From positions 1 through 64,000 of the IMG/VR virus record IMGVR_UViG_3300018044_000001: a stretch of 64,000 bases of DNA; one strand, written 5' to 3'. Of this stretch, positions 46,593-63,692 are shown piece by piece. The stretch is from a virus. The position numbers and the translations under genes are program-made. The notes under the pieces are model-generated. The model did no database searches. It worked only from the letters and a program-made list of their open reading frames with translations, and was not told where the DNA came from. Every line of letters begins with the position of its first letter. Position 1 is the stretch's first letter.

Positions 46593-46955
46593 GTGAACGA
46601 CATCAGCACACATGCCAGGAGTGCCGTCTTTGACGGCGCGCTGACAGTTGCGGAGATCAATGAGCGGTACAAGGAGGCGTTCAGGAAGAACGGGTGCGAC
46701 AGGGATGATGTCGCGTACTGGTCGTTGAGTGAGGCGCATCGGAGAGCGTTGAGCGCGCATACGGTTACGGTCGCGGCTGAGAGGACTAACAGGGTCCAGA
46801 GTGATCCAAATCGTGTGATGCCTAAGCAGATTCGCAAGTGGGCAGCGGAGCAGAAGATACCGCTGGGTAAGGGTGGGCGAGTGACGCCGCAGGTTGATCA
46901 GGCGTATCGGGAGGCACATGGGTTGGAGGTGCGGGAGTCAAGACGTCGGACGTAA
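46593..46955 (+). CDS. Lsr2 DNA-binding-domain protein
   Basis: PKQIRKWAAEQKIPLGKGGRVTPQVDQAYREAH; AAGGAG RBS. Confidence 0.8.
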   Translation: MNDISTHARSAVFDGALTVAEINERYKEAFRKNGCDRDDVAYWSLSEAHRRALSAHTVTVAAERTNRVQSDPNRVMPKQIRKWAAEQKIPLGKGGRVTPQVDQAYREAHGLEVRESRRRT

Positions 46956-47568
46956 GGTGTGGGCAGATGCCGCCGTTGCTCTCTCTGCCACAGTTGCAGT
47001 TCCAGCACTGTAGGCAATACCTGTCTTGCGGATATCCCTGATCACGCAACCATCGGTAAAAGGTAATACCGCCATAAATGCCAATCTCTCGCCTGTGTGC
47101 AGCGCCATCGTTGTTGACGTGTCCGATTGTCAGGAATGCTGGCTCGGATTCTCCGCAGCATTCACAGGCACCGCCGTAGGTCGCGAACGTTTCGCTGCGC
47201 AACTTCTCTAGTCCAACTTTGTTGGACGCCAATCGGGCAGCGCGATTTTGTGGATCGGCATGATACCATTCACGTCTGCGTCCAGACTGACAGGTGTGGC
47301 AGTAATGCGACCCGGCTATTCTAGGTTCGGTACCACATTGGCGACACCACGGATCGCAGTCCTCGCAACGATCACGTTTCTTGAGTCGGGGCTTGATGCC
47401 ACACAACTCACATGGCGGACGCGACAAAGACCACCAATCTTCGCTACCAGCACCGTTTGTGCGCGCCGTTTGATATCGTTCACGTCGGTTGCTGTCGTAG
47501 CACGATTTGCAGAGTCGGGACCGACCACGACGGTTATCGTGCGTCCCGCATTGATCACATGACCACAT
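46822..47568 (-). CDS. free-standing HNH-type endonuclease with CxxC repeats
   Basis: YGGACECCGE, LTIGHVNNDG, LQCWNCN, CPH. Confidence 0.75.
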   Translation of the reverse strand: MWSCDQCGTHDNRRGRSRLCKSCYDSNRRERYQTARTNGAGSEDWWSLSRPPCELCGIKPRLKKRDRCEDCDPWCRQCGTEPRIAGSHYCHTCQSGRRREWYHADPQNRAARLASNKVGLEKLRSETFATYGGACECCGESEPAFLTIGHVNNDGAAHRREIGIYGGITFYRWLRDQGYPQDRYCLQCWNCNCGRESNGGICPHLTSDVLTPAPPTHVPPDTPDQPAASLAHPYPAVSSAPLPTCESA

Positions 47569-47653
47569 AGTTTGCCCTCCTGCTAGAAAGGGTGTTGACT
47601 GCGGTGCAGCATAGGCCGCTAGCAGACGACCTACGCTGCACCAACAGATACTA

Positions 47654-47673
47654 ACACGCCATTACGGCGTGTG
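47654..47673 (-). terminator. hairpin after capsid stop codon
   Basis: ACACGCC-attac-GGCGTGT inverted repeat; weak U-tract. Confidence 0.35.
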
Positions 47674-47685
47674 TCGAATACTTAC

Positions 47686-50600
47686 CTACGCATCCGAATA
47701 GGAAGGAGGAGTCGTACCAATGCCGACTCCAGTGATTCCCTGGATTAAGCCATTCCATGCCGATGTTGTTACTCACCGCATTCGGTGGGTCGCTTCATTT
47801 CTGAGCGGCTCTTGTCATCTCTGACAAGTCCAGATCATATCATCGTCCGTTTAGGACGCCCAGTACATGATCGTTGAACCTTCACCATCTTACAGGTGCT
47901 TGGCTGCTGATTGTCCCTACCGTTCGCTTCTCAAACCGTCACGCTTGCGTTTTCACGCTACGTTGTGGTGCGAACGTCTAGCAGGACGTTCCAGCAATTC
48001 TCTGAGTTTGCATCCATCCATTACTGGATGGTGGCCCCCAATCGAGGCGCATAGTGGCAGAACGTTCCGATCTCAACTTTGTTGTTACCGTTTACACGGG
48101 CCAGGTCATTTCTGCCTGACTCCCACCATCTCTGATGGGAACGGATCATATCTTCACCCGTTTGCACGGGGCACCGTACATGATCTCTGAAGCTTCCCCA
48201 GTGAAGGGGCTCGCCTGCTGATTGTCCATAGCCATTGCTTTTCAAGCCTTCACGCTCGCCCTTTCGAGCCACGTTGTAGCGCAATGGATTGGCTGGACGT
48301 TCCAGCAATTCTCGGTGTTGATTTTCATGCCTATTGCTAGGCAGCGACCCTGAAAATCCAGGTCGACGCGTCGTAGGTAAATTGAACTACTGGCCATTGC
48401 ACAGCTCGCTCTTGTTGCCGCTTGCGCGGGACACATTTGGTGTGTCTCTTCATGTCTCCATGAAGGCCGGACTATATCTTCACCCACTTGGGATGCTCAG
48501 TACATAGTCTCTGAACCTTCCCCTGTTTGGGGGCTCGGCTGCTGATTGTCCGTATCACCTGCTTCTCAAACCATCGCGCTCGCCCTTTCGGGCCACGCTG
48601 TGGTGCAGGTGCTTAGCCGGAGTTCCCAGCAATTCTCTGAGTTGCAACTGCGTATCGCTACGCAGCGACGCTCGCGTGAACGTAGTCTTGTGGCAGTACC
48701 ATAACCGATGTTTCAGCAACGTTGGAATCCGGTATCGGCAGGTTCTTCTGCCTGATCAGCGCATTACCCTGTGGAATCCACGGGTGCACAGTGATCGGAA
48801 CACTCGAACCAGTCACTTCGTTCATCAATGTCGAGACAACGACGCCAGCGTGGACGCCGCCCATCTCTGACTGATTCACGAAGATACGATACGCGCTGCT
48901 CTGAGGGTTGTTCAGGATCGCGTTGGAAAGCTGCAAACGGTCGAAGCCGTTCATCCAGACTTCCTCCGGGTCACTCTTCACAGCCTCATACAAGGAACCG
49001 AACGCATACTGGAACTCAACGCCAGGGTTGGTGGTGCTGAACGCCGCGTTCAACCTTGTCACATAGCCACCGGATGCGGCTACGTTGGTGAGCAATCCAT
49101 CGTAGTTAGTTGCGACCGCAGATGCGTCAAGACCGTTCGATGGAGTAACGGCAGGACCGCTCTGTGGGAAGGATGTCACATATCCGACGTTGTACCCGGT
49201 ACGACCTGCGTAGTAGGCCGATGCCGAAGACGACACCGAGGATACGAACAGGTTGTAGCCAAGTGCTCCAGTGGAGTCTGTGCCAATTGTTACCTGGACG
49301 GCCTGACCGGCGGTCACGGAAACAGATGCAGCCGCAGTAGTTGCGGACTGGTGCATCGTAGATCCGTTGACACCGAGCAGGTCACCAGCGTCGGCGGCCG
49401 CCGTCACCCACAACGTTGTCGTTGGGATGGTGGACTTGCCACCGGGAGCTAGGGATGCGCTGACTGCGGCTAGGGTCAATGCCCCTGGTGCAGCAAGAGC
49501 GCCCGCGTAGCCTGACTGGCTGCCGCGTCCGTAAAGCATGAGCCTTTCATCAATCAACATCGTGGAGTAGAGAAGGGCGGTGTTGCTCAAAGAACGTACG
49601 TCTTCGAAGCCCTGTCCCTGATACTCCCGTACTTGTGACCGTCCTCCAAAGGACGGGTCGCATCATTTCTGTGCGACTCTTCACGTTACCGTGAAGCGCG
49701 GACTATATCTTAATCTGCAAGGAGTCTCTTGCGACTCCAGTGTCCTGGCGATGCGCGCCATGCTAAGATGGCGGTTTGCAACTGGTCCCTTCGTCTTTGC
49801 TTCAGCCATGGCCACATGGCAACGGCTAGTGCATACGCATCGGCACCATGAGCACGATAGTCCCATAATGGCCGATGTTTCATGCTAGGCGATTGGCGCG
49901 GGCCGTTACACGTGCCCACTCCTGCCAGTTCGTGAAAGGTGCGGATTACGTCTTCGTCAATCATGCTGATAGCACAACGAAAACCCACCGTTGTAAAGGG
50001 ACGTCCATCGGCCCGCACATACGAGCGTGGTCGACCCTGTACATACCCTTCACCTTCAAACACTCCAGCCATCCAGGCTAGATTCTCGCGTGTCCAGTTT
50101 TTTGATCTGTTTGCAGATTCCATGCGCTTAGTCTCTGAGCCTTCCTCGTAGCTTGCGCCTTAGAGGCTTTGGTTGCTGATTACCCTATACTAGCACTTCT
50201 CAAACCGTCGCGCTCACGTTTTCACGTCACGCTGTGGTGTGCTTCGCTTCAGGGCGTCCCAGCAGTTTTCATGGTTGTCATCTGCCTATCGCTAGGCAGC
50301 GGACCCTAGTTGAGCCTGCCACGATACTGAGTCCGATAGCGACGTTGTGACGTATGGAAGCGTCACGCTGTAACCATCGTAGTTGATGTAAGGTCCACGA
50401 ATGTAGCTTAACCCGCCAGGACCAGAGGAGTTCAGGTAGGATTCCGTGATACCCGGCTGCACCGTAGTGGCACCGCCTGTTGATGTACCCGTGAACCCGC
50501 TGATCACCTTGAACTGTCGGTTAGCGCCTTGACCCTTGACTCTTGGAATCGAATTTCGCAAGGGTGTCGGACGAGGCGTCAAAAGTTTGGCCGGAGCCTC

Positions 50601-51984
50601 ACTAAAATGTTACTAAACTTGTCAGGTTTAGATCACGTCATTTCTGCGTGATTCTACGCGTCTCCGCGCAGTTCGGACTATATCTTAATCTGTGTGCTGT
50701 CCACATGAACATGGTTTGCCACGGTTGATATTCCATCGTTGGCATTGTGCCTTGGCTGGATACCAACCTTTGAGTGATGCGCTGATCTTGGCTTTCTCTT
50801 CTGGTGTGTGTAAGACACCTTTTTGAGATTCGCTTCTCTTGGCCCGAGATGCGGGCGACCAAACGTGACCGGGTTTGAATGTACCGGCGTTCGGGTGTCC
50901 TTTGTGAATCTCACTCAGTTTGGCGCGCGTTTCGGGTGTAGCGGTAGTCCCCGTACGCGCATTGCTAATCTTGCTGCGCGTAACAGAAGAATGCGAACGA
51001 CCGTAAAATGGATTCCCATCACCAGTCATGGCGGCACTCCTGAGTGCCCTCACCTCTGGCGTAAAAACTGGACCATCCTCGCCGCCCGCAGTACCGTTGG
51101 TGAGTCGACACCCGATCGACCGATAGTAGCCTATCCAATAATTTTCAGCTACCTGCCAGTCCGACGACGGCACTTCCTGTACTAACGTGATCTGTGGATC
51201 ATATCCACATCGCAGCAGTTTGGCTATCCAACGAGATCGCCAGTCGCCTTGGCCAATGCGTGCCTGACTGCGGTGACAGGATAGTCTGTCGGAAAGGCGT
51301 TGTATTGTCTTGCCTACGTATCGAATCTCATTGTCGCGTGGATCAATGAGCACGTAGATTTTTGTCATGCGTGACAACTTACAGATTCCACGTACATAGT
51401 CTCTGAACCTTCCTCGTGCCCTGGACGGGTGTAGAGGCTCGGCTGCTGATTGCCCTATACTAGCACTTTTCAAACCGTCGCGTCAAGTCTTTCGACTCCC
51501 GCTGTGGTGTGCTTCGCTTCAGGGTATTCCAGCAATTCTCGTGGTTATTGCCTGCGTATCGCTACGCAGCGATCCCGAGGGGGAGATCGTAGGGGACCAA
51601 ACCTGTGGTCACAGGCGTGGTCAATGTCCATTCTTTCTCCATCTCTTGCCAGTCAACAGCGCCCGCACTCTTTGCCATCTCGTAAGCATCAACAGCCTTA
51701 CGTACGACACCAGCGCGGTCACTCCTCTTGGCAATTGGAGCTACAGGCCCATGCCCCGGGATAAAACCAGTTGCGATCGTATCCGGGGGTGCCTGCACAA
51801 AGCCGACATCGCCGTTCAAACCGGCAATCGTGGCCTTGGTCATTTCTGATAGGAACTCTTGACGATCCTCTGTTACCTCACGATCAGACTTTGCACTGAA
51901 GCGCAATGCGCCACCGTGTGCAGCCTGAGCACCAGGATCACGAGAACCGTCGAACAACTCCCTTGCATTTGGAAGGGACGGCAT
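47686..51984 (-). CDS. major capsid protein, 6 exons (51984-51584, 50601-50313, 49626-48680, 48406-48360, 48076-48045, 47760-47686), 596 aa spliced
   Basis: exons sum to 1791 nt and join in frame: PYDL/EAPAKLL, WQA/EYQGQGFED, QDYV/AVQWP, AST/FEIGT, YAP/AWNGLIQG; follows protease and scaffold. Confidence 0.88.
47761..48044 (-). ncRNA. group I intron 5 (284 nt, no ORF)
   Basis: P1 GCCU.GGGC, AATTGCTGGAA, AATCAGCAG, P7 GATCA/TGATC, terminal G. Confidence 0.88.
48077..48359 (-). ncRNA. group I intron 4 (283 nt, no ORF)
   Basis: P1 GACCU.GGGUC, AATTGCTGGAA, AATCAGCAGG, TCAGAGATCA and AAGATATGATCC, terminal G. Confidence 0.9.
48407..48679 (-). ncRNA. group I intron 3 (273 nt, no ORF)
   Basis: P1 ACGU.GCGU, AATTGCTGGGAA, AATCAGCAG, TTCAGAGACTA, AAGATATAGTCC, terminal G. 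Confidence 0.9.
49627..50312 (-). mobile_element. group I intron 2 (686 nt) carrying LAGLIDADG ORF in P8
   Basis: AACTGCTGGGA, AATCAGCA, TCAGAGACTA, AAGATATAGTCC; U.G splice site after GCT; terminal G. Confidence 0.9.
49710..50123 (-). CDS. single-motif LAGLIDADG homing endonuclease
   Basis: LAWMAGVFEGEGYV; stop codon overlaps intron S element. Confidence 0.85.
   Translation of the reverse strand: MESANRSKNWTRENLAWMAGVFEGEGYVQGRPRSYVRADGRPFTTVGFRCAISMIDEDVIRTFHELAGVGTCNGPRQSPSMKHRPLWDYRAHGADAYALAVAMWPWLKQRRRDQLQTAILAWRASPGHWSRKRLLAD
50602..51583 (-). mobile_element. group I intron 1 (982 nt) carrying GIY-YIG ORF in P8
   Basis: P1 GAUCU.GGAUC, AATTGCTGGAA, AATCAGCAGCC, TTCAGAGACTA, AAGATATAGTCC, terminal G. 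Confidence 0.92.
50685..51368 (-). CDS. GIY-YIG homing endonuclease with NUMOD3 repeats
   Basis: IYVLIDPRDNEIRYVGKT, LTNGTAGGE, GNPFYGRSHS, HTPEEKAKIS. Confidence 0.88.
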   Translation of the reverse strand: MTKIYVLIDPRDNEIRYVGKTIQRLSDRLSCHRSQARIGQGDWRSRWIAKLLRCGYDPQITLVQEVPSSDWQVAENYWIGYYRSIGCRLTNGTAGGEDGPVFTPEVRALRSAAMTGDGNPFYGRSHSSVTRSKISNARTGTTATPETRAKLSEIHKGHPNAGTFKPGHVWSPASRAKRSESQKGVLHTPEEKAKISASLKGWYPAKAQCQRWNINRGKPCSCGQHTD

Positions 51985-52005
51985 GTGTTACTTCACTTTC
52001 CGACC

Positions 52006-54054
52006 TTAACTCGCCAACTGCGCGCGCAACTCCTTGATCAACTCACGGTTGCCATCGCGGACGGTCAGGTCTGGGGTATCGCGAGCTTCGCGCTCAAGAG
52101 CTGCTATGCGCAGTTCCGTCATGTCGCGGCTCGCGGTTTTCATGGTCATTTCTGGTGTGCGGGTCTTTACCGGCCCACCAGGAGCTGCCATTTTCTTGAC
52201 CCCATCCAACTCACTCTTCAACGTCTCGACTGTCGCCTGCAGACTCTGATTCTGCTCAACGACCTTTGCGAGATGCTCTTCAATTTGCTTGGTTAGTGCC
52301 GCGTTTTCAGCAGCTTGTTTCTCTGCCTCTTCGGCCTTGCGCAGCTCCTTCTTGGCAGCCTTGCGCGCCGCTTTGGCTTCGATCTGTTCAGGCGTCAGTT
52401 CCTCTTCGTCTGCAGCCTTGGCCGCACCAGTCGCCTGGTTCGTACCGCTGGCGCTTTCGTTGTCTCCGTGATCTGCCTCGTCCTCAAGGTCGTCATTTTC
52501 GTCCTTGGGGGCCTTTTGCTTGTTCTTCTTGTCGGCACCCTTCGCGTTGGAAATGGCGTCTGCCTCATCCATCGCGGGCTTGCCCTTCAGTGCCTCACCA
52601 ATGAGCTTGACGAGCTTTTCATCGCGCCCGTCGAGCACCTGTAGAAGCTCGTCGCCTGTCATATCATCAATCTCCTTGGCGAGTATCGCCTTAGTGGTTT
52701 CGTCGTCATCGTCATCATCATCGTCATCCGAGTCAGAATCGGAATCATCGTCCCCGTCGTCGTCATCGTCAGAATCCGACTCGGGGTCATCCACGCCCAA
52801 CAGTCCACTGATCACAGCACGGGCAGCCACGAGGGCGCTAATCGAGTCTCCCGATAGTCTTGCACCTGATTTTTCTGCGGTGTCGTCCAACGCTTTCTCT
52901 GCTTGCGAAGCAACGGCCTCATGGAAGGCAAGCGTCGCCATCTGCCCGATTGCCGCAGACAAGATGTCCAGCACGCACTCGGCACTGAACGTGTCGAACA
53001 CGTCATTGCCCTCGCCAGCAGCCACCTCAATGGCCTCACGGTCACGGAACTGCCGCGTCAGTTCATATGCCTGCAGGATCAGATTGGCCGCGTCTGAAGC
53101 GATCACAGCGTCCGCTGCTTCCCATTCTGGCGAACCAGGCATAGCAGCAGCGTCGTCTGCAGCAGGTGCGGCAGGTGGTGCACCAGTTACGGAGCCACCA
53201 AGGAATGGGTTGTCACCGCTAACGACGCCATCCTTCTCAACAAGCTCGACACTCTTGGTAGCCAACGACCCGTCCGAGTTCCAGTTGTCTGGAATCTTGG
53301 ACGACAAGTTCAGCGCCTTCGCGCGTGCGATGATGTGCTTACGAATGGCATCGTGGTCAGCACCGCCGCGACCGACAGCATGGATCGCGTTGTCAAGGTC
53401 TTCGGCATCGGCAACAGGGTAGGCACCGTCAGACATGGCCTGACCACTGCTGGCCATCTTGTCGCGGTCAGCCTGCTTGTACTTGGCCTTGACTAGTTCC
53501 TCATATGCAGCAAGTGCTTTGTCGATCGTGGTGCGACCGTTGCCATCGTCGGACGATCCTGCGAACCCAGGCTGCGCGTTCAACTTGTCAGCGGGCGGCA
53601 TCTGTCCATCGCTGCCAGTACCGTTGCAGTCTGTACATGTCTTGCCGTCAAGTAGCGTGCCGCTGCCATGACATGTCGGGCAGTCCTTGGCGGTTGGTAC
53701 GGGCACACCACTTGCAGCCGTTGCCTTGGCAGCCTCAAGCAGTTCCTTCTCTGTCTGTCCGACCTTGGGAGCGTTGCCGGTGCCGAGACACTTCGGGCAC
53801 TTGCGGTGGCCTTCCATGATCTTGCCCGTGCCCTTGCATTTAGGACAGTCCTGGCTGTCGTCACCGTCGTCTGTCTCGTCGTCGGCCTTGACAATCTCCA
53901 TGTCAAGATTCTCCGCGACCTGTTCTAGGACTGCGCGAACCTCTTCGCTGGCAGACTTGGCAAGTAACGCTTTGAAACCGTTAGCACCTTTGCCCACGAG
54001 ATGGAGTTCATCGGGATCGATCTCCTCGAACTCCGTGATAGCTACGTCTGTCAT
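52006..54054 (-). CDS. scaffold-like protein with DnaJ-type zinc fingers
   Basis: four CxxCxGxG motifs, AMSDGAYPV..IPDNW domain, acidic tract, coiled-coil C-terminus; directly upstream of capsid. Confidence 0.7.
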   Translation of the reverse strand: MTDVAITEFEEIDPDELHLVGKGANGFKALLAKSASEEVRAVLEQVAENLDMEIVKADDETDDGDDSQDCPKCKGTGKIMEGHRKCPKCLGTGNAPKVGQTEKELLEAAKATAASGVPVPTAKDCPTCHGSGTLLDGKTCTDCNGTGSDGQMPPADKLNAQPGFAGSSDDGNGRTTIDKALAAYEELVKAKYKQADRDKMASSGQAMSDGAYPVADAEDLDNAIHAVGRGGADHDAIRKHIIARAKALNLSSKIPDNWNSDGSLATKSVELVEKDGVVSGDNPFLGGSVTGAPPAAPAADDAAAMPGSPEWEAADAVIASDAANLILQAYELTRQFRDREAIEVAAGEGNDVFDTFSAECVLDILSAAIGQMATLAFHEAVASQAEKALDDTAEKSGARLSGDSISALVAARAVISGLLGVDDPESDSDDDDDGDDDSDSDSDDDDDDDDDETTKAILAKEIDDMTGDELLQVLDGRDEKLVKLIGEALKGKPAMDEADAISNAKGADKKNKQKAPKDENDDLEDEADHGDNESASGTNQATGAAKAADEEELTPEQIEAKAARKAAKKELRKAEEAEKQAAENAALTKQIEEHLAKVVEQNQSLQATVETLKSELDGVKKMAAPGGPVKTRTPEMTMKTASRDMTELRIAALEREARDTPDLTVRDGNRELIKELRAQLAS

Positions 54055-60675: not shown

Positions 60676-60749
60676 TCCTGGTGGAGGGATTCGAACCCTC
60701 AACGCGTGGTCCTTGAAGCCACCGCCTCTGCCGGTTGGGCTACACCAGG
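60676..60749 (-). tRNA. tRNA-Leu(CAA), short variable loop
   Basis: CCTGGTG/CACCAGG acceptor, loop TTCAAGG, TTCGAAT; C31.A39 mismatch. Confidence 0.7.
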
Positions 60750-60773
60750 TAGCGTTATGACATCGTAGTCCAG

Positions 60774-60845
60774 AGCCAACGACGTGAGTCGAACACGCAA
60801 CAACGAAGGTACGAGCTTCGCTTCCATCCGTAGGAACTCGCTGGC
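60774..60845 (-). tRNA. tRNA-Thr(CGT), atypical D-arm
   Basis: GCCAGCG/CGTTGGC; CGAAG-CTCGTAC-CTTCG. Confidence 0.75.
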
Positions 60846-60891
60846 AAGCGGCCGTTCTTGTTAAACCGGGAACATGCCCTAAAGCCGGTCG

Positions 60892-60974
60892 TGCGGATGG
60901 TGGGACTTGAACCCACATGCCTAACGGCAGTCGCTTTTAAGGCGACCGTGTATACCAATTCCAACCACATCCGC
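60892..60974 (-). tRNA. tRNA-Leu(TAA)
   Basis: GTCGC-CTTAAAA-GCGAC, long variable arm. Confidence 0.92.
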
Positions 60975-60978
60975 GTAG

Positions 60979-61052
60979 CACCCCTGGCGGGACTCGAACC
61001 CGCATCATACCATTACGGTTACTTGCTTAGAAGACAAGACCGATACAGGGGC
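60979..61052 (-). tRNA. non-canonical tRNA-Arg(TCT)-like, no 5' D-arm
   Basis: GCCCCTG-TA-TCGGT-CTTGT-CTTCTAA-GCAAG-TA-ACCG-TAATGG..T-arm. Confidence 0.7.
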
Positions 61053-61053
61053 G

Positions 61054-61129
61054 TGACGGGGGCGGGATTTGAACCACGCGACCTCTAGGTTATGGGCCTA
61101 GCGAGCTGACCAAACTGCTCTACCCCGCG
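61054..61129 (-). tRNA. initiator-like tRNA-Met(CAT)
   Basis: CGCGGGG start with 1:72 mismatch; CTAGG-CCCATAA-CCTAG. Confidence 0.8.
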
Positions 61130-61201
61130 TGGCAGATGTTGGTATCGAGCCAACCAGACACGATCCTTATGAGAGATCGCCGCTTACCCTGAGCAACTGC
61201 C
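61130..61201 (-). tRNA. atypical tRNA-Met/Ile2(CAT)
   Basis: CGATCT-CTCATAA-GGATCG; shortened connector and D-arm, T-loop CTCGATA. Confidence 0.6.
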
Positions 61202-61203
61202 GG

Positions 61204-61276
61204 GGTGACGGGGGGAACTCGAATCCCCTTGCACTAGGGCCACAACCTAGCCGCGTACCACGATGCGTCCCGTCAC
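61204..61276 (-). tRNA. tRNA-His(GTG)
   Basis: CTAGG-TTGTGGC-CCTAG; C discriminator. Confidence 0.8.
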
Positions 61277-61278
61277 AG

Positions 61279-61349
61279 TACCAGTGGAAGGTGTCGAACC
61301 TCCGTCCCAACTTTGTAAGAGTTGTCGTCTCCCGTTGACATACACTGGC
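61279..61349 (-). tRNA. tRNA-Val(TAC)
   Basis: CAACT-CTTACAA-AGTTG. Confidence 0.8.
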
Positions 61350-61353
61350 GTAG

Positions 61354-61425
61354 TGCTCCTACCCGGACTCGAACCGAGAATGCCTGCTTAAAGGGCAGAA
61401 CCGTTTCCATTACGATCATAGGAGC
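61354..61425 (-). tRNA. tRNA-Lys(TTT)
   Basis: CTGC-CCTTTAA-GCAG (C33). Confidence 0.75.
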
Positions 61426-61427
61426 AA

Positions 61428-61502
61428 TGGTAGGCGACCAGGGAATCGAACCCTGTATCAGACCATATCAGAGTCTGCGATTAGCCGTCTTCTTCGTCGC
61501 CC
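61428..61502 (-). tRNA. tRNA-Ile(GAT), CCA encoded
   Basis: CAGACT-CTGATAT-GGTCTG; weak D-arm. Confidence 0.75.
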
Positions 61503-61503
61503 G

Positions 61504-61578
61504 TGGTGGTCCCTGTCGGACTCGAACCGACCTCTCTGCGTCTTCAGCGCGGCGCTAATCCGTCTCAGCTAAAGGACC
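61504..61578 (-). tRNA. tRNA-Phe(GAA), CCA encoded
   Basis: GCG-CTGAAGA-CGC; canonical T-arm. Confidence 0.8.
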
Positions 61579-61582
61579 GTAG

Positions 61583-61659
61583 TGCGGGCCGCGGGACTCG
61601 AACCCGCATGGACCGTATTACCCTTTCAACATTTCATAAGAATGAGGGGATACGCCCGC
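61583..61659 (-). tRNA. non-canonical tRNA-Ile(TAT)-like, no 5' D-arm
   Basis: GCGGGCG-TA-TCCCC-TCATT-CTTATGA-AATG..AGGG-TAATACGG..T-arm. Confidence 0.62.
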
Positions 61660-61661
61660 AA

Positions 61662-61735
61662 TGGAGCCGATGGCAGGAGTTGAACCCGCGTCTGGTGAGT
61701 ACAAAACACCTGTACTTCCGTTGTACGACACCGGC
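61662..61735 (-). tRNA. tRNA-Thr(TGT), CCA encoded
   Basis: GGTGT-TTTGTAC-TCACC. Confidence 0.85.
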
Positions 61736-61738
61736 AAA

Positions 61739-61886
61739 TGTCGCCCCTAGTCGCGTCGAAATCCTTGGGTAGCTAATCCCAACCTGCTGCGGTTACCAAG
61801 CGCAGCCACGACCAATGGAACCCTCCGCGTACGAGTAACGCGGCACCAGTCACGGACTATTAACCGTTGTCAGGGGTGGGGCGACA
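61739..61886 (-). ncRNA. unassigned structured RNA within the tRNA array
   Basis: 9-bp closing stem TGTCGCCCC/GGGGCGACA enclosing four hairpins. Confidence 0.6.
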
Positions 61887-61887
61887 G

Positions 61888-61960
61888 CTCCGAGGGTAGG
61901 AATCGAACCCACGCGCACTGGGTCCAAGGCCCAGCTACGAAACCAACATCGTACCTCGGA
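61888..61960 (-). tRNA. tRNA-Gln(TTG)
   Basis: CTGGG-CCTTGGA-CCCAG (C33). Confidence 0.8.
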
Positions 61961-61961
61961 A

Positions 61962-62035
61962 TGGAACGGCTGACCCGACTCGAACGGGCGTATTCAGGGT
62001 GGAAACCTGACGCTCTGCCTCTGAGCTACAACCGC
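61962..62035 (-). tRNA. tRNA-Gly(TCC), CCA encoded
   Basis: TCAGG-TTTCCAC-CCTGA. Confidence 0.9.
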
Positions 62036-62036
62036 A

Positions 62037-62111
62037 TGGAGCGACTAGCGGGAGTCGAACCCGCACTTGCACCATGGCGAGGTGCCGTCATAGCCACTAG
62101 ACCATAATCGC
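62037..62111 (-). tRNA. tRNA-Gly(GCC), CCA encoded
   Basis: GCACC-TCGCCAT-GGTGC (C33). Confidence 0.87.
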
Positions 62112-62113
62112 AT

Positions 62114-62188
62114 TGGAGCGCAGGGTCGGAATCGAACCGACGAAAATGCGGGTTGCAGCCGCACGCCTTCCCATTCAGCCACCTACGC
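62114..62188 (-). tRNA. tRNA-Cys(GCA), CCA encoded
   Basis: TGCGG-CTGCAAC-CCGCA; U discriminator. Confidence 0.9.
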
Positions 62189-62192
62189 ACAG

Positions 62193-62266
62193 CTCCGGCG
62201 GGAAGAGTCGAACTTCCATGATGAGCACCTTAACGGGATGCTGGCTTGCCATTAGCCCACACCGGA
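62193..62266 (-). tRNA. tRNA-Asn(GTT)
   Basis: GCATC-CCGTTAA-GGTGC (C33). Confidence 0.83.
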
Positions 62267-62270
62267 ATAG

Positions 62271-62342
62271 TGATCCGTACCAGAATCGAACTGGTGTCTC
62301 AGGCTTGAGGGGCCTGCGTACGTACCTCTGTACCAACGGATC
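62271..62342 (-). tRNA. tRNA-Glu(CTC)
   Basis: CAGGC-CCCTCAA-GCCTG (C33). Confidence 0.83.
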
Positions 62343-62358
62343 TTTGTACTAATAGACT

Positions 62359-62434
62359 TGGTACTCCCAGTCGGAATCGAACCGGCGTTTCGACCTTGAA
62401 AGAGTCGCGTCCTCTGCCGCTAGACGATGGGAGC
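62359..62434 (-). tRNA. tRNA-Glu(TTC), CCA encoded
   Basis: CGACT-CTTTCAA-GGTCG. Confidence 0.92.
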
Positions 62435-62439
62435 CTTCG

Positions 62440-62622
62440 TTACATCCACACCAACTGTTCCACCATCGCATTGATCGACAACCCGACGAACGACAGCAAC
62501 AGAATCAGACCCATGAACACCAACGACACTACGTCAAGTTGTACCGTCAAGAATAGCGGGATCGCAAGTAGCCACGCGGTGCGATAGATCCACGACTCGA
62601 TGCGTTGCAGGCGGTCAATCAT
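62440..62622 (-). CDS. small membrane protein inside the tRNA array
   Basis: AAGGAG RBS; two hydrophobic segments. Confidence 0.6.
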   Translation of the reverse strand: MIDRLQRIESWIYRTAWLLAIPLFLTVQLDVVSLVFMGLILLLSFVGLSINAMVEQLVWM

Positions 62623-62641
62623 GTGGCTCCTTTTGTTGCAG

Positions 62642-62725
62642 CGGAAAGTCGGCGAGTCGGACGCCATGGCTTGCACCACCAACGCGCTTCCAACGCGTGC
62701 CCATCACCGTCAGGGTTGACTTTCC
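62642..62725 (-). tRNA. tRNA-Ser(GGA), 8/4 type
   Basis: GGAAAGTC/GACTTTCC acceptor, 4-bp T-stem, ACGCG-TTGGAAG-CGCGT. Confidence 0.8.
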
Positions 62726-62788
62726 ATGGCGCAACGCCTACACGCGCAGTGCACAGCGCCACCTCCACCCACTTCCTCGGCGTTGCAG

Positions 62789-62872
62789 CGGATGACGGGC
62801 CATTCGAAGACCAAGCCGTGAAGCTCACACCGCTTTCGAGGCGGGTCTGGTTCCCTGTCCAGTTCATCATCC
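62789..62872 (-). tRNA. tRNA-Ser(CGA), 8/4 type
   Basis: GGATGATG/CGTCATCC, GGTC-TTCGAAT-GGCC, CCGC-CTCGAAA-GCGG. Confidence 0.8.
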
Positions 62873-62876
62873 AGAG

Positions 62877-62961
62877 CGGTAGGGTGAGAGCACGATTCCC
62901 AGGCCAAGAGGCCCCAGACGGGTTCAAGCCGTCGCCGCTAACCCTGAACGGTTACCCTACC
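62877..62961 (-). tRNA. tRNA-Ser(TGA), 8/4 type
   Basis: GGTAGGGT/ACCCTACC, GACGG-CTTGAAC-CCGTC, T-loop ATCGTGC. Confidence 0.78.
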
Positions 62962-62962
62962 G

Positions 62963-63046
62963 CGGAAGACGGGATACTCGAAAACCACACCTTGCAGTGC
63001 GCACTCGTTAGCAGCGAGGCCCGGCACCCTGTCCGGTTCGTCTTCC
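62963..63046 (-). tRNA. tRNA-Ser(GCT), 8/4 type
   Basis: GGAAGACG/CGTCTTCC, CTCG-CTGCTAA-CGAG. Confidence 0.8.
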
Positions 63047-63050
63047 TTAG

Positions 63051-63123
63051 CGTCGCCGGTGGGACTCGAACCCACATCTCCCATTACGGCTACCGACTTA
63101 GGAGGTCGGGCCGGTACGACGAC
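63051..63123 (-). tRNA. non-canonical tRNA-Arg(CCT)-like, no 5' D-arm
   Basis: GTCGTCG-TA-CCGGC-CCGAC-CTCCTAA-GTCGG-TA-GCCG-TAATGG..T-arm. Confidence 0.72.
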
Positions 63124-63124
63124 A

Positions 63125-63198
63125 TGGAGCCTACGCACAGAGTTGAACTGTGATCTCTGGTGTACCACGCCAGGACTCTTCCGCTGAGCTACGCAGGC
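63125..63198 (-). tRNA. tRNA-Thr(GGT), CCA encoded
   Basis: CTGGC-GTGGTAC-ACCAG; GCC acceptor start. Confidence 0.8.
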
Positions 63199-63308
63199 AA
63201 TAGGTAGAGCTTCCCACACTCCCGAGTGCGTACATTCACCCGGCTACGTCGTAAACGACGGGTGTACCAGATGGCGTTGGCTGTCATGGCTGGTGGTAAA
63301 ACGGCTCG

Positions 63309-63382
63309 TACCCCCGGCACGATTCGAACGCGCGTCTCCTGATCCGTAGTCAGGTGCTACAAATCCACTCAGCTACGGGGGC
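63309..63382 (-). tRNA. tRNA-Arg(ACG)
   Basis: CCTGA-CTACGGA-TCAGG. Confidence 0.9.
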
Positions 63383-63383
63383 A

Positions 63384-63461
63384 TGGCGGAAATGACGGGA
63401 TTCGAACCCGCGGTCTGGACCTTGACGGGGTCCCGAGGACGGCCAACTCCTCTACATCTCC
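63384..63461 (-). tRNA. tRNA-Asp(GTC), CCA encoded
   Basis: GGACC-CCGTCAA-GGTCC (C33). Confidence 0.9.
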
Positions 63462-63465
63462 ATCG

Positions 63466-63538
63466 CTCCGAGGGGAGGATTCGGACCCCCGACATCAAGG
63501 TTCAGAGCCTTGCGTTCTGCCCACTGAACTACCTCGGA
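63466..63538 (-). tRNA. tRNA-Gln(CTG)
   Basis: CAAGG-CTCTGAA-CCTTG. Confidence 0.87.
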
Positions 63539-63543
63539 ATGAG

Positions 63544-63617
63544 TCTGGGTGGCAGGATTTGAACCTGCGCTCTCCTGGTCCCAGGCCAGGCGCGTTTCCA
63601 AGCTTCGCTACACCCAG
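63544..63617 (-). tRNA. tRNA-Pro(TGG)
   Basis: CCTGG-CCTGGGA-CCAGG (C33). Confidence 0.88.
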
Positions 63618-63620
63618 TTG

Positions 63621-63692
63621 TCCACCTGAAGGGAATCGAACCCCCACGAACTCGTTAAGAGCGAGTCACGCTAGCCATTACGTCACAGGTGG
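63621..63692 (-). tRNA. tRNA-Lys(CTT)
   Basis: ACTCG-CTCTTAA-CGAGT. Confidence 0.85.

Follow-up and report, generated by a model that had tools for sequence, protein, structure and literature searches.

Can a phage with one gene for its major capsid protein (MCP) have that gene broken by five introns, and are all five removed from the RNA? The question is raised by IMG/VR virus record IMGVR_UViG_3300018044_000001, of which we analysed positions 1 to 64,000 (hereafter the window, a stretch of 64,000 nt). The record measures 88,572 bp, bears direct terminal repeats and is rated complete; it represents the complete 88.6-kb genome of a tailed phage of peat or wetland soil. A first-pass annotation, made from the letters of the window alone, had proposed that a gene at 47,686 to 51,984 encodes the MCP and is interrupted by five group I introns, leaving two micro-exons of 47 and 32 nt. 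Our analysis makes us highly confident that a single MCP gene is indeed interrupted by five related group I introns and spliced to a 596-aa product.

Layout of the gene, its ribozyme cores and its splice sites

Read in the direction of transcription, the gene is composed of the following exons and introns, two of the latter carrying an open reading frame (ORF):

51584..51984, minus strand: exon 1, 401 nt, aa 1-134 with the final codon split; the ATG is at 51984
50602..51583, minus strand: intron 1, 982 nt, group I, carrying a putative GIY-YIG/NUMOD3 endonuclease ORF
50313..50601, minus strand: exon 2, 289 nt, matching positions 45-87 of phrog_13692 and positions 115-210 of the capsid profile
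49627..50312, minus strand: intron 2, 686 nt, group I, carrying an HNH-type ORF
48680..49626, minus strand: exon 3, 947 nt, matching positions 124-453 of phrog_13692 (E 1.5e-56)
48407..48679, minus strand: intron 3, 273 nt, group I, without ORF
48360..48406, minus strand: exon 4, a 47-nt micro-exon matching positions 518-536 of the capsid profile
48077..48359, minus strand: intron 4, 283 nt, group I, without ORF
48045..48076, minus strand: exon 5, a 32-nt micro-exon, colinear with homologues of the FEIGTFCHYAP type
47761..48044, minus strand: intron 5, 284 nt, group I, without ORF
47686..47760, minus strand: exon 6, 75 nt including the stop, a C-terminal tail like that of the homologues P0003, L012 and L157

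The coordinates of the six-exon model were all reproduced. The exon lengths (401+289+947+47+32+75) add up to 1791 nt, and the conceptual product of 596 aa plus stop contains zero internal stops. For exon 1, tblastn alignments to relatives begin at aa 3-4 and positions 15-114 of the capsid profile are matched. Any exon skip shifts the frame, exons 4 and 5 each being 2 mod 3 in length.

The whole window was scanned against the Rfam covariance models and the region 47300-52300 was rescanned permissively; the gathering score of RF00028 is 50. The first scan yielded three RF00028 introns above this score, all on the minus strand and inside the gene. The permissive one gave five RF00028 matches with E-values from 2.8e-18 to 7.2e-10, all of them full-length (model positions 1-253):

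48448-48689, minus strand: match in intron 3, 74.9 bits
47811-48054, minus strand: match in intron 5, 54.8 bits
49679-50339, minus strand: match in intron 2, 54.4 bits
50654-51593, minus strand: match in intron 1, 49.9 bits, E 8.7e-11
48122-48369, minus strand: match in intron 4, 46.8 bits, E 7.2e-10

All five introns are thus matched by covariance models, on the minus strand and at the places where the first-pass annotation had put them. The two long matches, in introns 1 and 2, hold large ORF-bearing insertions. The five cores share a common architecture that includes peripheral hairpins after P9, with pairwise identities of 58-71%. All five introns of this complete genome are confined to the capsid gene: scanning the window at E ≤0.001 and the other 24.6 kb at E ≤0.01, both permissive settings, turned up no further group I intron.

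Covariation was assessed in an alignment of six ORF-less introns, three of the window and three from the capsid genes of the relatives L012 and L019. It holds 74 consensus pairs with 95.2% of the cells paired, and both sides have changed in 40 of the 74, a count that is somewhat favourably biased by taking the structure from the same alignment. Shuffled controls gave a mean of 18.1, with 0 of 500 reaching 40, and sliding the partners by 1-3 columns gave 3-7. The P7 helix accounts for two compensatory pairs. The intron tree is poorly resolved, the exception being the grouping of introns 1 and 2 (support 0.93). A recent burst of intron copies within the capsid gene was considered and rejected, because the introns of the window are as distant from one another as stated above, and introns that share a site elsewhere are about as distant (68-71% identical).

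Every exon that precedes an intron has U as its last base, and G is the last base of every intron. A guide G with which the splice-site U can pair lies within the first 17 nt of each intron, and the P1 pairing is 6/6 for introns 1 and 4 and comprises four contiguous pairs for introns 2, 3 and 5. The U.G wobble at the 5′ splice site and the terminal G that had been read from the letters are hence found in every intron, and the predicted junction peptides QDYV/AVQWP and AST/FEIGT (a slash marks the joint) are as they had been given. In the mechanism that we propose, the capsid gene would be transcribed as one precursor, in which each intron would fold as a ribozyme and remove itself by the two transesterifications usual for group I introns. 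The P1 helix with its U.G pair would guide the 5′ splice site and the terminal G would mark the intron end, so that six exons, the 47- and 32-nt pieces included, would be joined into the 1791-nt message for the capsid protein.

If the junctions are exact, the joined protein should run through those of homologues that lack introns. An exhaustive protein search with exon 3 recovered 327 homologues at E ≤0.001, many of them 540-600 aa long; the capsid family as a whole numbers more than 2,850 homologues. The closest full-length one (P0002, 580 aa, intronless) is 64% identical to exon 3, and the closest database relatives of this exon are truncated ORFs of 343-382 aa. When the joined protein is aligned to 10 full-length uninterrupted homologues, all five junctions are free of gaps; they read YDL/EAPAKLLTPRPTPLRN, SDSVSWQA/EYQGQGF, QDYV/A.., TYDAST/.EIGTF and HYAP/.W.G.IQGI. 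This gap-free colinearity with intronless homologues is the property on which the first-pass proposal had been made to depend. Furthermore, 14 of 17 IMG/VR relatives encode the whole protein in one frame (33-74% identity, to aa 581 or beyond); of the others, L017 shows a single frame up to the contig end and two are interrupted. Direct comparison with phage records yielded little: a megablast search of 50,697 of them with the region returned no match, and tblastn of exon 3 returned four distant records only.

Joined RNA in environmental samples

Parts of the stretch were found in 24 public runs, eight of which are metatranscriptomes (wetland or unnamed metagenomes). Over positions 47600-52020 we compared the contigs of three RNA runs from three studies (X5, X6 and X8) and of one DNA run from peat (X2), which is not likely to be the source sample. 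The phage, or strains nearly identical to it, occurs both in the peat DNA and in the wetland or unnamed metagenome RNA samples. Our results show that all five junctions are present in RNA contigs, each at the exact predicted base. For intron 1, 50601 is joined to 51584 (982 nt) in X5, X6 and X8; for intron 2, 49626 to 50313 (686 nt) in X5 and X6; for intron 3, 48406 to 48680 (273 nt), for intron 4, 48076 to 48360 (283 nt), and for intron 5, 47760 to 48045 (284 nt), these last three in X5 and X8. The spliced RNA that had been called for as a check on the proposal therefore exists.

The X6 contigs that cross the joints of introns 1 and 2 have no mismatch to the window across 614 and 281 nt, respectively. 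The joints of introns 3, 4 and 5 lie together on a single contig, in each of X5 and X8. None of the five joints occurs in the DNA contigs of X2. These read through intron 1 (record 8), intron 2 (record 7), intron 5 (record 1) and a portion of intron 4, at 0-1 differences. In X5 and X6, whose contigs bridge intron 2, nothing covers its interior (49672-50263), and RNA contigs of X5 that are identical to the window fall wholly within introns 3, 4 and 5. The environmental RNA is hence consistent with all five splicing reactions working.

Several points weigh against this reading. The scores of introns 1 and 4 (49.9 and 46.8 bits) lie just below the RF00028 gathering score. X5 and X8 share the year 2017 and the wetland habitat and may stem from one campaign. 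The material consists of assembled contigs, not raw reads, and as such gives no splicing efficiency and lets rare forms escape; contig depths cannot be ranked and we draw no quantitative reading from them. The P1 of intron 2 has only four contiguous pairs, yet a site pairing 6/6 lies 17 nt upstream. Lastly, in the contig that joins exons 3, 4, 5 and 6, 13 of 483 exon-3 positions depart from the window; by these differences it comes from a variant strain, which might lack introns 3-5 in its DNA.

This last point leads to an alternative in which the RNA contigs across the junctions of introns 3-5, at least, derive from relatives with intron-less DNA or from DNA carry-over, so that splicing of these three introns would be unproven here. 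The same variant letters are seen in the DNA run X2 (record 4), so that a variant strain does occur as DNA, and the presence of introns does vary between near-identical relatives (L012 and L157, see below). We nevertheless regard this alternative as highly improbable. The DNA contigs of X2 show none of the five joints, as noted above, and introns 3-5, with their cores and P1 helices intact and a G at the end, covary with those of relatives. The nearest intron-less relatives that we fetched are just 56-76% identical in protein. For introns 1 and 2, moreover, the joined RNA is identical to the window while identical DNA retains the introns. Finally, the genome has a single capsid copy, and without splicing the phage would therefore have no capsid gene.

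A second alternative accepts the introns as real and supposes that one or more of them (intron 2, with its weak P1 and a decoy site upstream, or the three introns in tandem next to the micro-exons) need a protein helper, mis-splice or skip exons, with splicing throttling or timing the output of capsid. It draws on the guide of intron 2, for which the Rfam alignment placed P1 not at the splice site but at the following hexamer:

50330..50335, minus strand: CGGACU, 17 nt upstream of the 5′ splice site of intron 2, pairing 6/6 with the intron-2 guide GGUCCG and a possible decoy 5′ splice site

It draws as well on an X8 contig in which exons 3-6 are joined and which extends 171 nt into the intron at the intron-2 site. 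Skipping of short exons between phage group I introns is also documented, for Twort orf142 (PMC10136302) and for SIOphi TerL (PMC11878797). On the other side, no joint in the contigs of the three RNA runs uses the decoy hexamer or connects exons that are not neighbours, within the limit that rare forms can escape contigs. Every skip would shift the frame, and hexamers that pair fully with the intron-2 guide number six in the coding sequence, such matches being thus not rare. The half-spliced X8 contig may be either an ordinary, partly spliced precursor or DNA of a variant without introns 3-5. We therefore consider it unlikely, though not far-fetched, that helpers or splicing errors play such a part, and the exon skipping that the first-pass annotation had thought possible finds no support among the contigs.

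An alternative intron 2, with its 5′ site at 50330 and its 3′ site at 49631, would have a better P1 and would leave an open frame of 592 aa. It was rejected because it deletes the conserved SVSWQA segment, which homologues keep, and because RNA contigs join 49626 to 50313; the site originally proposed is accordingly the one we favour. Use of the decoy hexamer would shift the reading frame.

Some contigs show additional joints (48008 to 48328, 48484 to 48562, 51455 to 51522 and 50534 to 51583), which lie between or inside paralogous introns and are probably assembly errors that fuse similar introns, or stem from related introns in other phages. Loose ends on some RNA contigs run on into unrelated sequence.

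Identity of the interrupted gene

To which protein do the six exons belong? A profile built from 66 sequences of the family was compared by hhalign with capsid proteins of annotated phages. It matched the 'major capsid protein' gp7 of Arthrobacter phage Sonali (99.8%, E 4.8e-28) and the 'major head protein' of Alicyclobacillus phage MMB025 (100%, E 2.6e-42), both names being database annotations, and the homology spans 423-425 columns. The order portal, protease or scaffold, homologue, head-tail adaptor is found in four annotated phages: Polewnik (a Brevundimonas phage), THSA-485A (a Thermoanaerobacterium phage), MMB025 and Sonali. A search of the complete genome with the capsid profile matched solely exons 1-4 of this gene, in order, and found no intact second capsid copy. 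The matches of phrog_13692, a family whose function is unassigned, to exons 2 and 3 are also colinear. On these grounds the assignment as MCP made by the first-pass annotation holds, and the joined protein can be predicted from sequence to adopt an HK97-type capsid fold.

To the counter-evidence listed above must be added that the exons and the full-length homologues alike are without a match to the Pfam and NCBIfam capsid models, and that a profile search of the PDB gave no useful match (best E 0.32). The link to PF17236 (SU10_MCP) is weak, with 2 of 66 members matching (best E 0.0011) and one Atlas cluster in which 22% of the members do. Together with the unassigned function of phrog_13692, these observations would fit the interrupted gene coding for another large head protein, not the MCP. 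We hold this to be quite improbable in view of the long homology to proteins annotated as major capsid or head proteins and of the capsid slot, between protease or scaffold and head-tail adaptor, that the homologues occupy in the four phages. The MCP thus remains our assignment.

Directly upstream of the capsid gene lies a 682-aa ORF (52006-54054, minus strand). It contains a zinc-finger region of the DnaJ type, CXXCXGXG (34.8 bits, cut-off 32.7), and a long acidic stretch of low complexity, and its C-terminal part weakly matches phrog_80 'head maturation protease'. Of the 17 IMG/VR relatives, 15 keep it before their capsid gene (33-42% identity), and it would be an unusual zinc-finger scaffold or protease.

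Intron ORFs, the capsid family and introns of other phages

How could five introns have come to lie in one gene? Two of them carry an ORF, and an HNH-type ORF lies directly downstream of the gene:

50685..51368, minus strand: ORF of intron 1, 227 aa from ATG, NUMOD3/GIY-YIG
49710..50123, minus strand: ORF of intron 2, 137 aa, phrog_5046 'HNH endonuclease', E 3.8e-21
46822..47568, minus strand: free-standing HNH-type gene, 248 aa, directly downstream of the capsid gene, phrog_2255 'HNH endonuclease', E 2.1e-8

All three are predicted from their matches to be homing endonucleases. The intron-1 ORF matches Pfam NUMOD3 in four stretches (65.7 bits, cut-off 20.4), GIY-YIG with 21.1 bits, below the Pfam cut-off of 22.6, and phrog_314 'homing endonuclease' (E 2e-17). 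GIY-YIG homing endonucleases, of the I-TevI type, have a catalytic domain to which DNA-binding modules are appended. In L019 and L159, introns at this site or close to it hold homologues with 59-67% identity. Neither the intron-2 ORF nor the downstream HNH-type ORF has a Pfam match at E up to 0.1. Homologues of the intron-2 ORF with ~66% identity lie in, or just upstream of, the same-site intron in L145, L146, L165 and L167, and one with 51% identity lies in the intron of L012/L157 at aa 252/253. In the Rfam alignment both intron ORFs fall within the hairpin that separates the 3′ strands of P3 and P7 (P8 by the usual numbering), and both end in a conserved GAUUAAGAUAUAGUC.

Relatives of the downstream gene, of the phrog_2255 type, are found inside capsid-gene introns (L153, 497-874; L163, 243-614) and just downstream of the capsid gene (L144, 7819-8304; L145; L146). 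The association was tested after merging near-identical loci, with 22 usable and 10 dropped (cut gene or less than 800 nt downstream). A downstream HNH gene is present in 3 of 5 genes with 3′-end introns versus 1 of 17 without (Fisher p 0.024, with kinship uncontrolled and small numbers). We take the tie between this gene and the 3′-end introns as a lead only; it suggests that the free-standing HNH gene may be linked to the introns.

The derivation of intron 2 from the aa-252 introns of L012/L019, with which it has in common the guide GGGUCCG and a 51% identical ORF, was also considered. It was not upheld, because the core of intron 2 is closest to that of intron 1 and the ORF relatives with ~66% identity are at its own site. 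The window itself has no intron at this position, which corresponds to 49555-49569 (minus strand) in exon 3. It reads TCCACG there, against TCGACT before the intron in L012, L157 and L019. The amino acids are the same, the U at the would-be splice site is absent and the match to the GGGUCCG guide is lost; the site could have been made refractory to that intron.

To place the window among its kin we fetched 44 loci (17 from IMG/VR and 27 from a metagenome scan). By tblastn, 11 of the 27 metagenome loci show an interruption, or a cut gene beside an intron motif, and an Rfam scan of those 11 gave group I matches (E ≤0.001) in 10 and none in L164. Of the other 16, 14 show one continuous frame. Four introns are found in the complete gene of L144 (near aa 121, 171, 558 and 572) and also in L153 (near aa 213, 234, 549 and 567; gene cut at aa 179). 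The 101.7-kb contig L145 has at least three and L012 three. Two each are present in L155, L157, L165, L168 and L019 (the last with a cut gene), and one each in L156, L159 and L167. The five introns of the window are therefore the highest count among the sampled loci, at the top of a continuous range. Across the family, insertion positions form ~12 clusters at tblastn resolution, of which the window occupies five. A core-motif scan of viral contigs gave at least 118 stretches, two of them with two matches among the 80 listed.

The five sites of the window lie in conserved segments (percentiles 99, 77, 100, 82 and 88), and only 1 of 20,000 random five-site draws reached that mean conservation. 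Insertion into conserved segments is a known habit of mobile introns. The site of intron 4 is occupied in L012 and empty in L157 (ACCT/TTGAG). Over the 2,914 nt that end ~8 nt short of the site, the two loci (L012, 3301-6620; L157, 4301-7330) share 99.4% identity, whereas the next ~270 nt beyond it are only 79% identical. L157 is hence a natural intron-minus allele with a diverged flank, and the break looks like a recombination or co-conversion boundary at the intron site.

These data suggest a route by which the gene may have been filled. The most likely targets of the endonucleases of introns 1 and 2 are the capsid alleles of co-infecting relatives that lack the intron; once such an allele is cut, repair would copy the intron in. 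The ORF-less introns 3-5 would have to rely on co-conversion, reverse splicing or a trans-acting nuclease. We take the introns to be members of an old and diversified lineage that has repeatedly colonised conserved segments of the capsid family.

Comparison with known systems shows the window to be a genuine, heavily loaded instance of something that phages are already known to have. In the account of Yutin et al. 2021 (PMC7886860), the MCP gene of a crAss-like phage belonging to the Zeta group (OLRF01000054, a cMAG) is in five fragments, with intron-typical domains encoded in three of its four spacers, and genomes hold up to 14 introns, plus inteins. This too is the capsid gene of an uncultured phage split by group I introns. 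It differs in having four interruptions, three of them recognised via protein domains, while the window has five, each with a covariance-model core. In the crAss-like phages the introns are spread across many genes, in gut Bacteroidetes phages, whereas here all lie in one gene, two with an ORF, and RNA joints are available. Given this gene and the four-intron relatives described above, the word 'exceptional' used in the first-pass annotation overstated the case.

Nor is the micro-exon as such new. Twort orf142 (Landthaler and Shub 1999, as relayed in PMC10136302) has three introns, a 23-nt exon and exon skipping. It resembles the window in its several related group I introns and in a very short exon between two similar ones; it differs in that skipping was demonstrated there among three introns, while the window, with five, shows no skipped form among contigs. 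Pope et al. 2013 (PMC3706429) report that the capsid-gene intron of mycobacteriophage LittleE is spliced, argue that splicing must be very efficient given the abundance of capsid, and cite a capsid intron in lactococcal phage Tuc2009 as well. LittleE has a single intron, only tentatively assigned to group I, against five in the window. In the Bastillevirinae (PMC11878797), core genes contain several group I introns, most bearing a loop endonuclease, with small exons detected via cDNA sequencing and exon skipping in SIOphi TerL; that text does not mention 'capsid'. Jug phages have 18.5 group I introns per genome, 37 of 76 being supported by metatranscriptomes (PMC12880540). Across the open-access text covered, which excludes supplements, no published example came to light of a phage gene with five group I introns backed by covariance models. 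The interest of the locus is then the load of five in an essential late gene with two micro-exons, the concentration of all of the genome's introns there, and the family-wide hotspot.

Birkholz et al. 2024 (PMC11620839) describe the intron endonuclease gp210 of PhiPA3, which can harm a co-infecting phage. It is a homing endonuclease carried, like those predicted here, by an intron within an essential phage gene, and it provides a model for harm to intron-less relatives. The role of gp210 was shown experimentally, for one intron of a jumbo phage, whereas such a role is hypothetical for the ORFs of the window. The pile-up of introns may be the trace of an arms race over the capsid gene among co-infecting relatives, and not mere parasitism. 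The endonucleases of introns 1 and 2 and the downstream HNH protein would cut the intron-less capsid alleles of competitors, and each ORF-less intron would shield its own genome by splitting the target of a nuclease (collaborative homing). If so, a capsid allele with five such armoured sites would both spread and hamper its rivals. We put this forward tentatively, as a possibility on which we would not bet.

Whatever its origin, the arrangement would make the most needed structural protein of the phage depend on five ribozyme reactions, with exons as short as those described above. The capsid family of these peat, lake and soil phages is an intron hotspot, with ~12 positions in 44 loci, endonuclease families common to several sites and one natural empty-site allele. 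It offers a natural system for the spread of introns within one gene, for the reliance of ORF-less introns on neighbouring nucleases and for selection on intron load. Gene callers fragment such genes, and capsid-based phage classification therefore misses or mis-sizes them.

A weak hint of an actinobacterial host comes from the sole homologue in 185,579 species genomes. It is uninterrupted and 58% identical (L169, 3080-5098), and it is located on a 2.19-Mb contig of an uncultured Acidimicrobiaceae metagenome-assembled genome, presumably in a prophage. Elsewhere in the window, a dense tRNA array (60676-63692, minus strand) accounts for 18 Rfam tRNA matches, and two more lie just past the window end (L140 400-557, genome positions 64400-64557).

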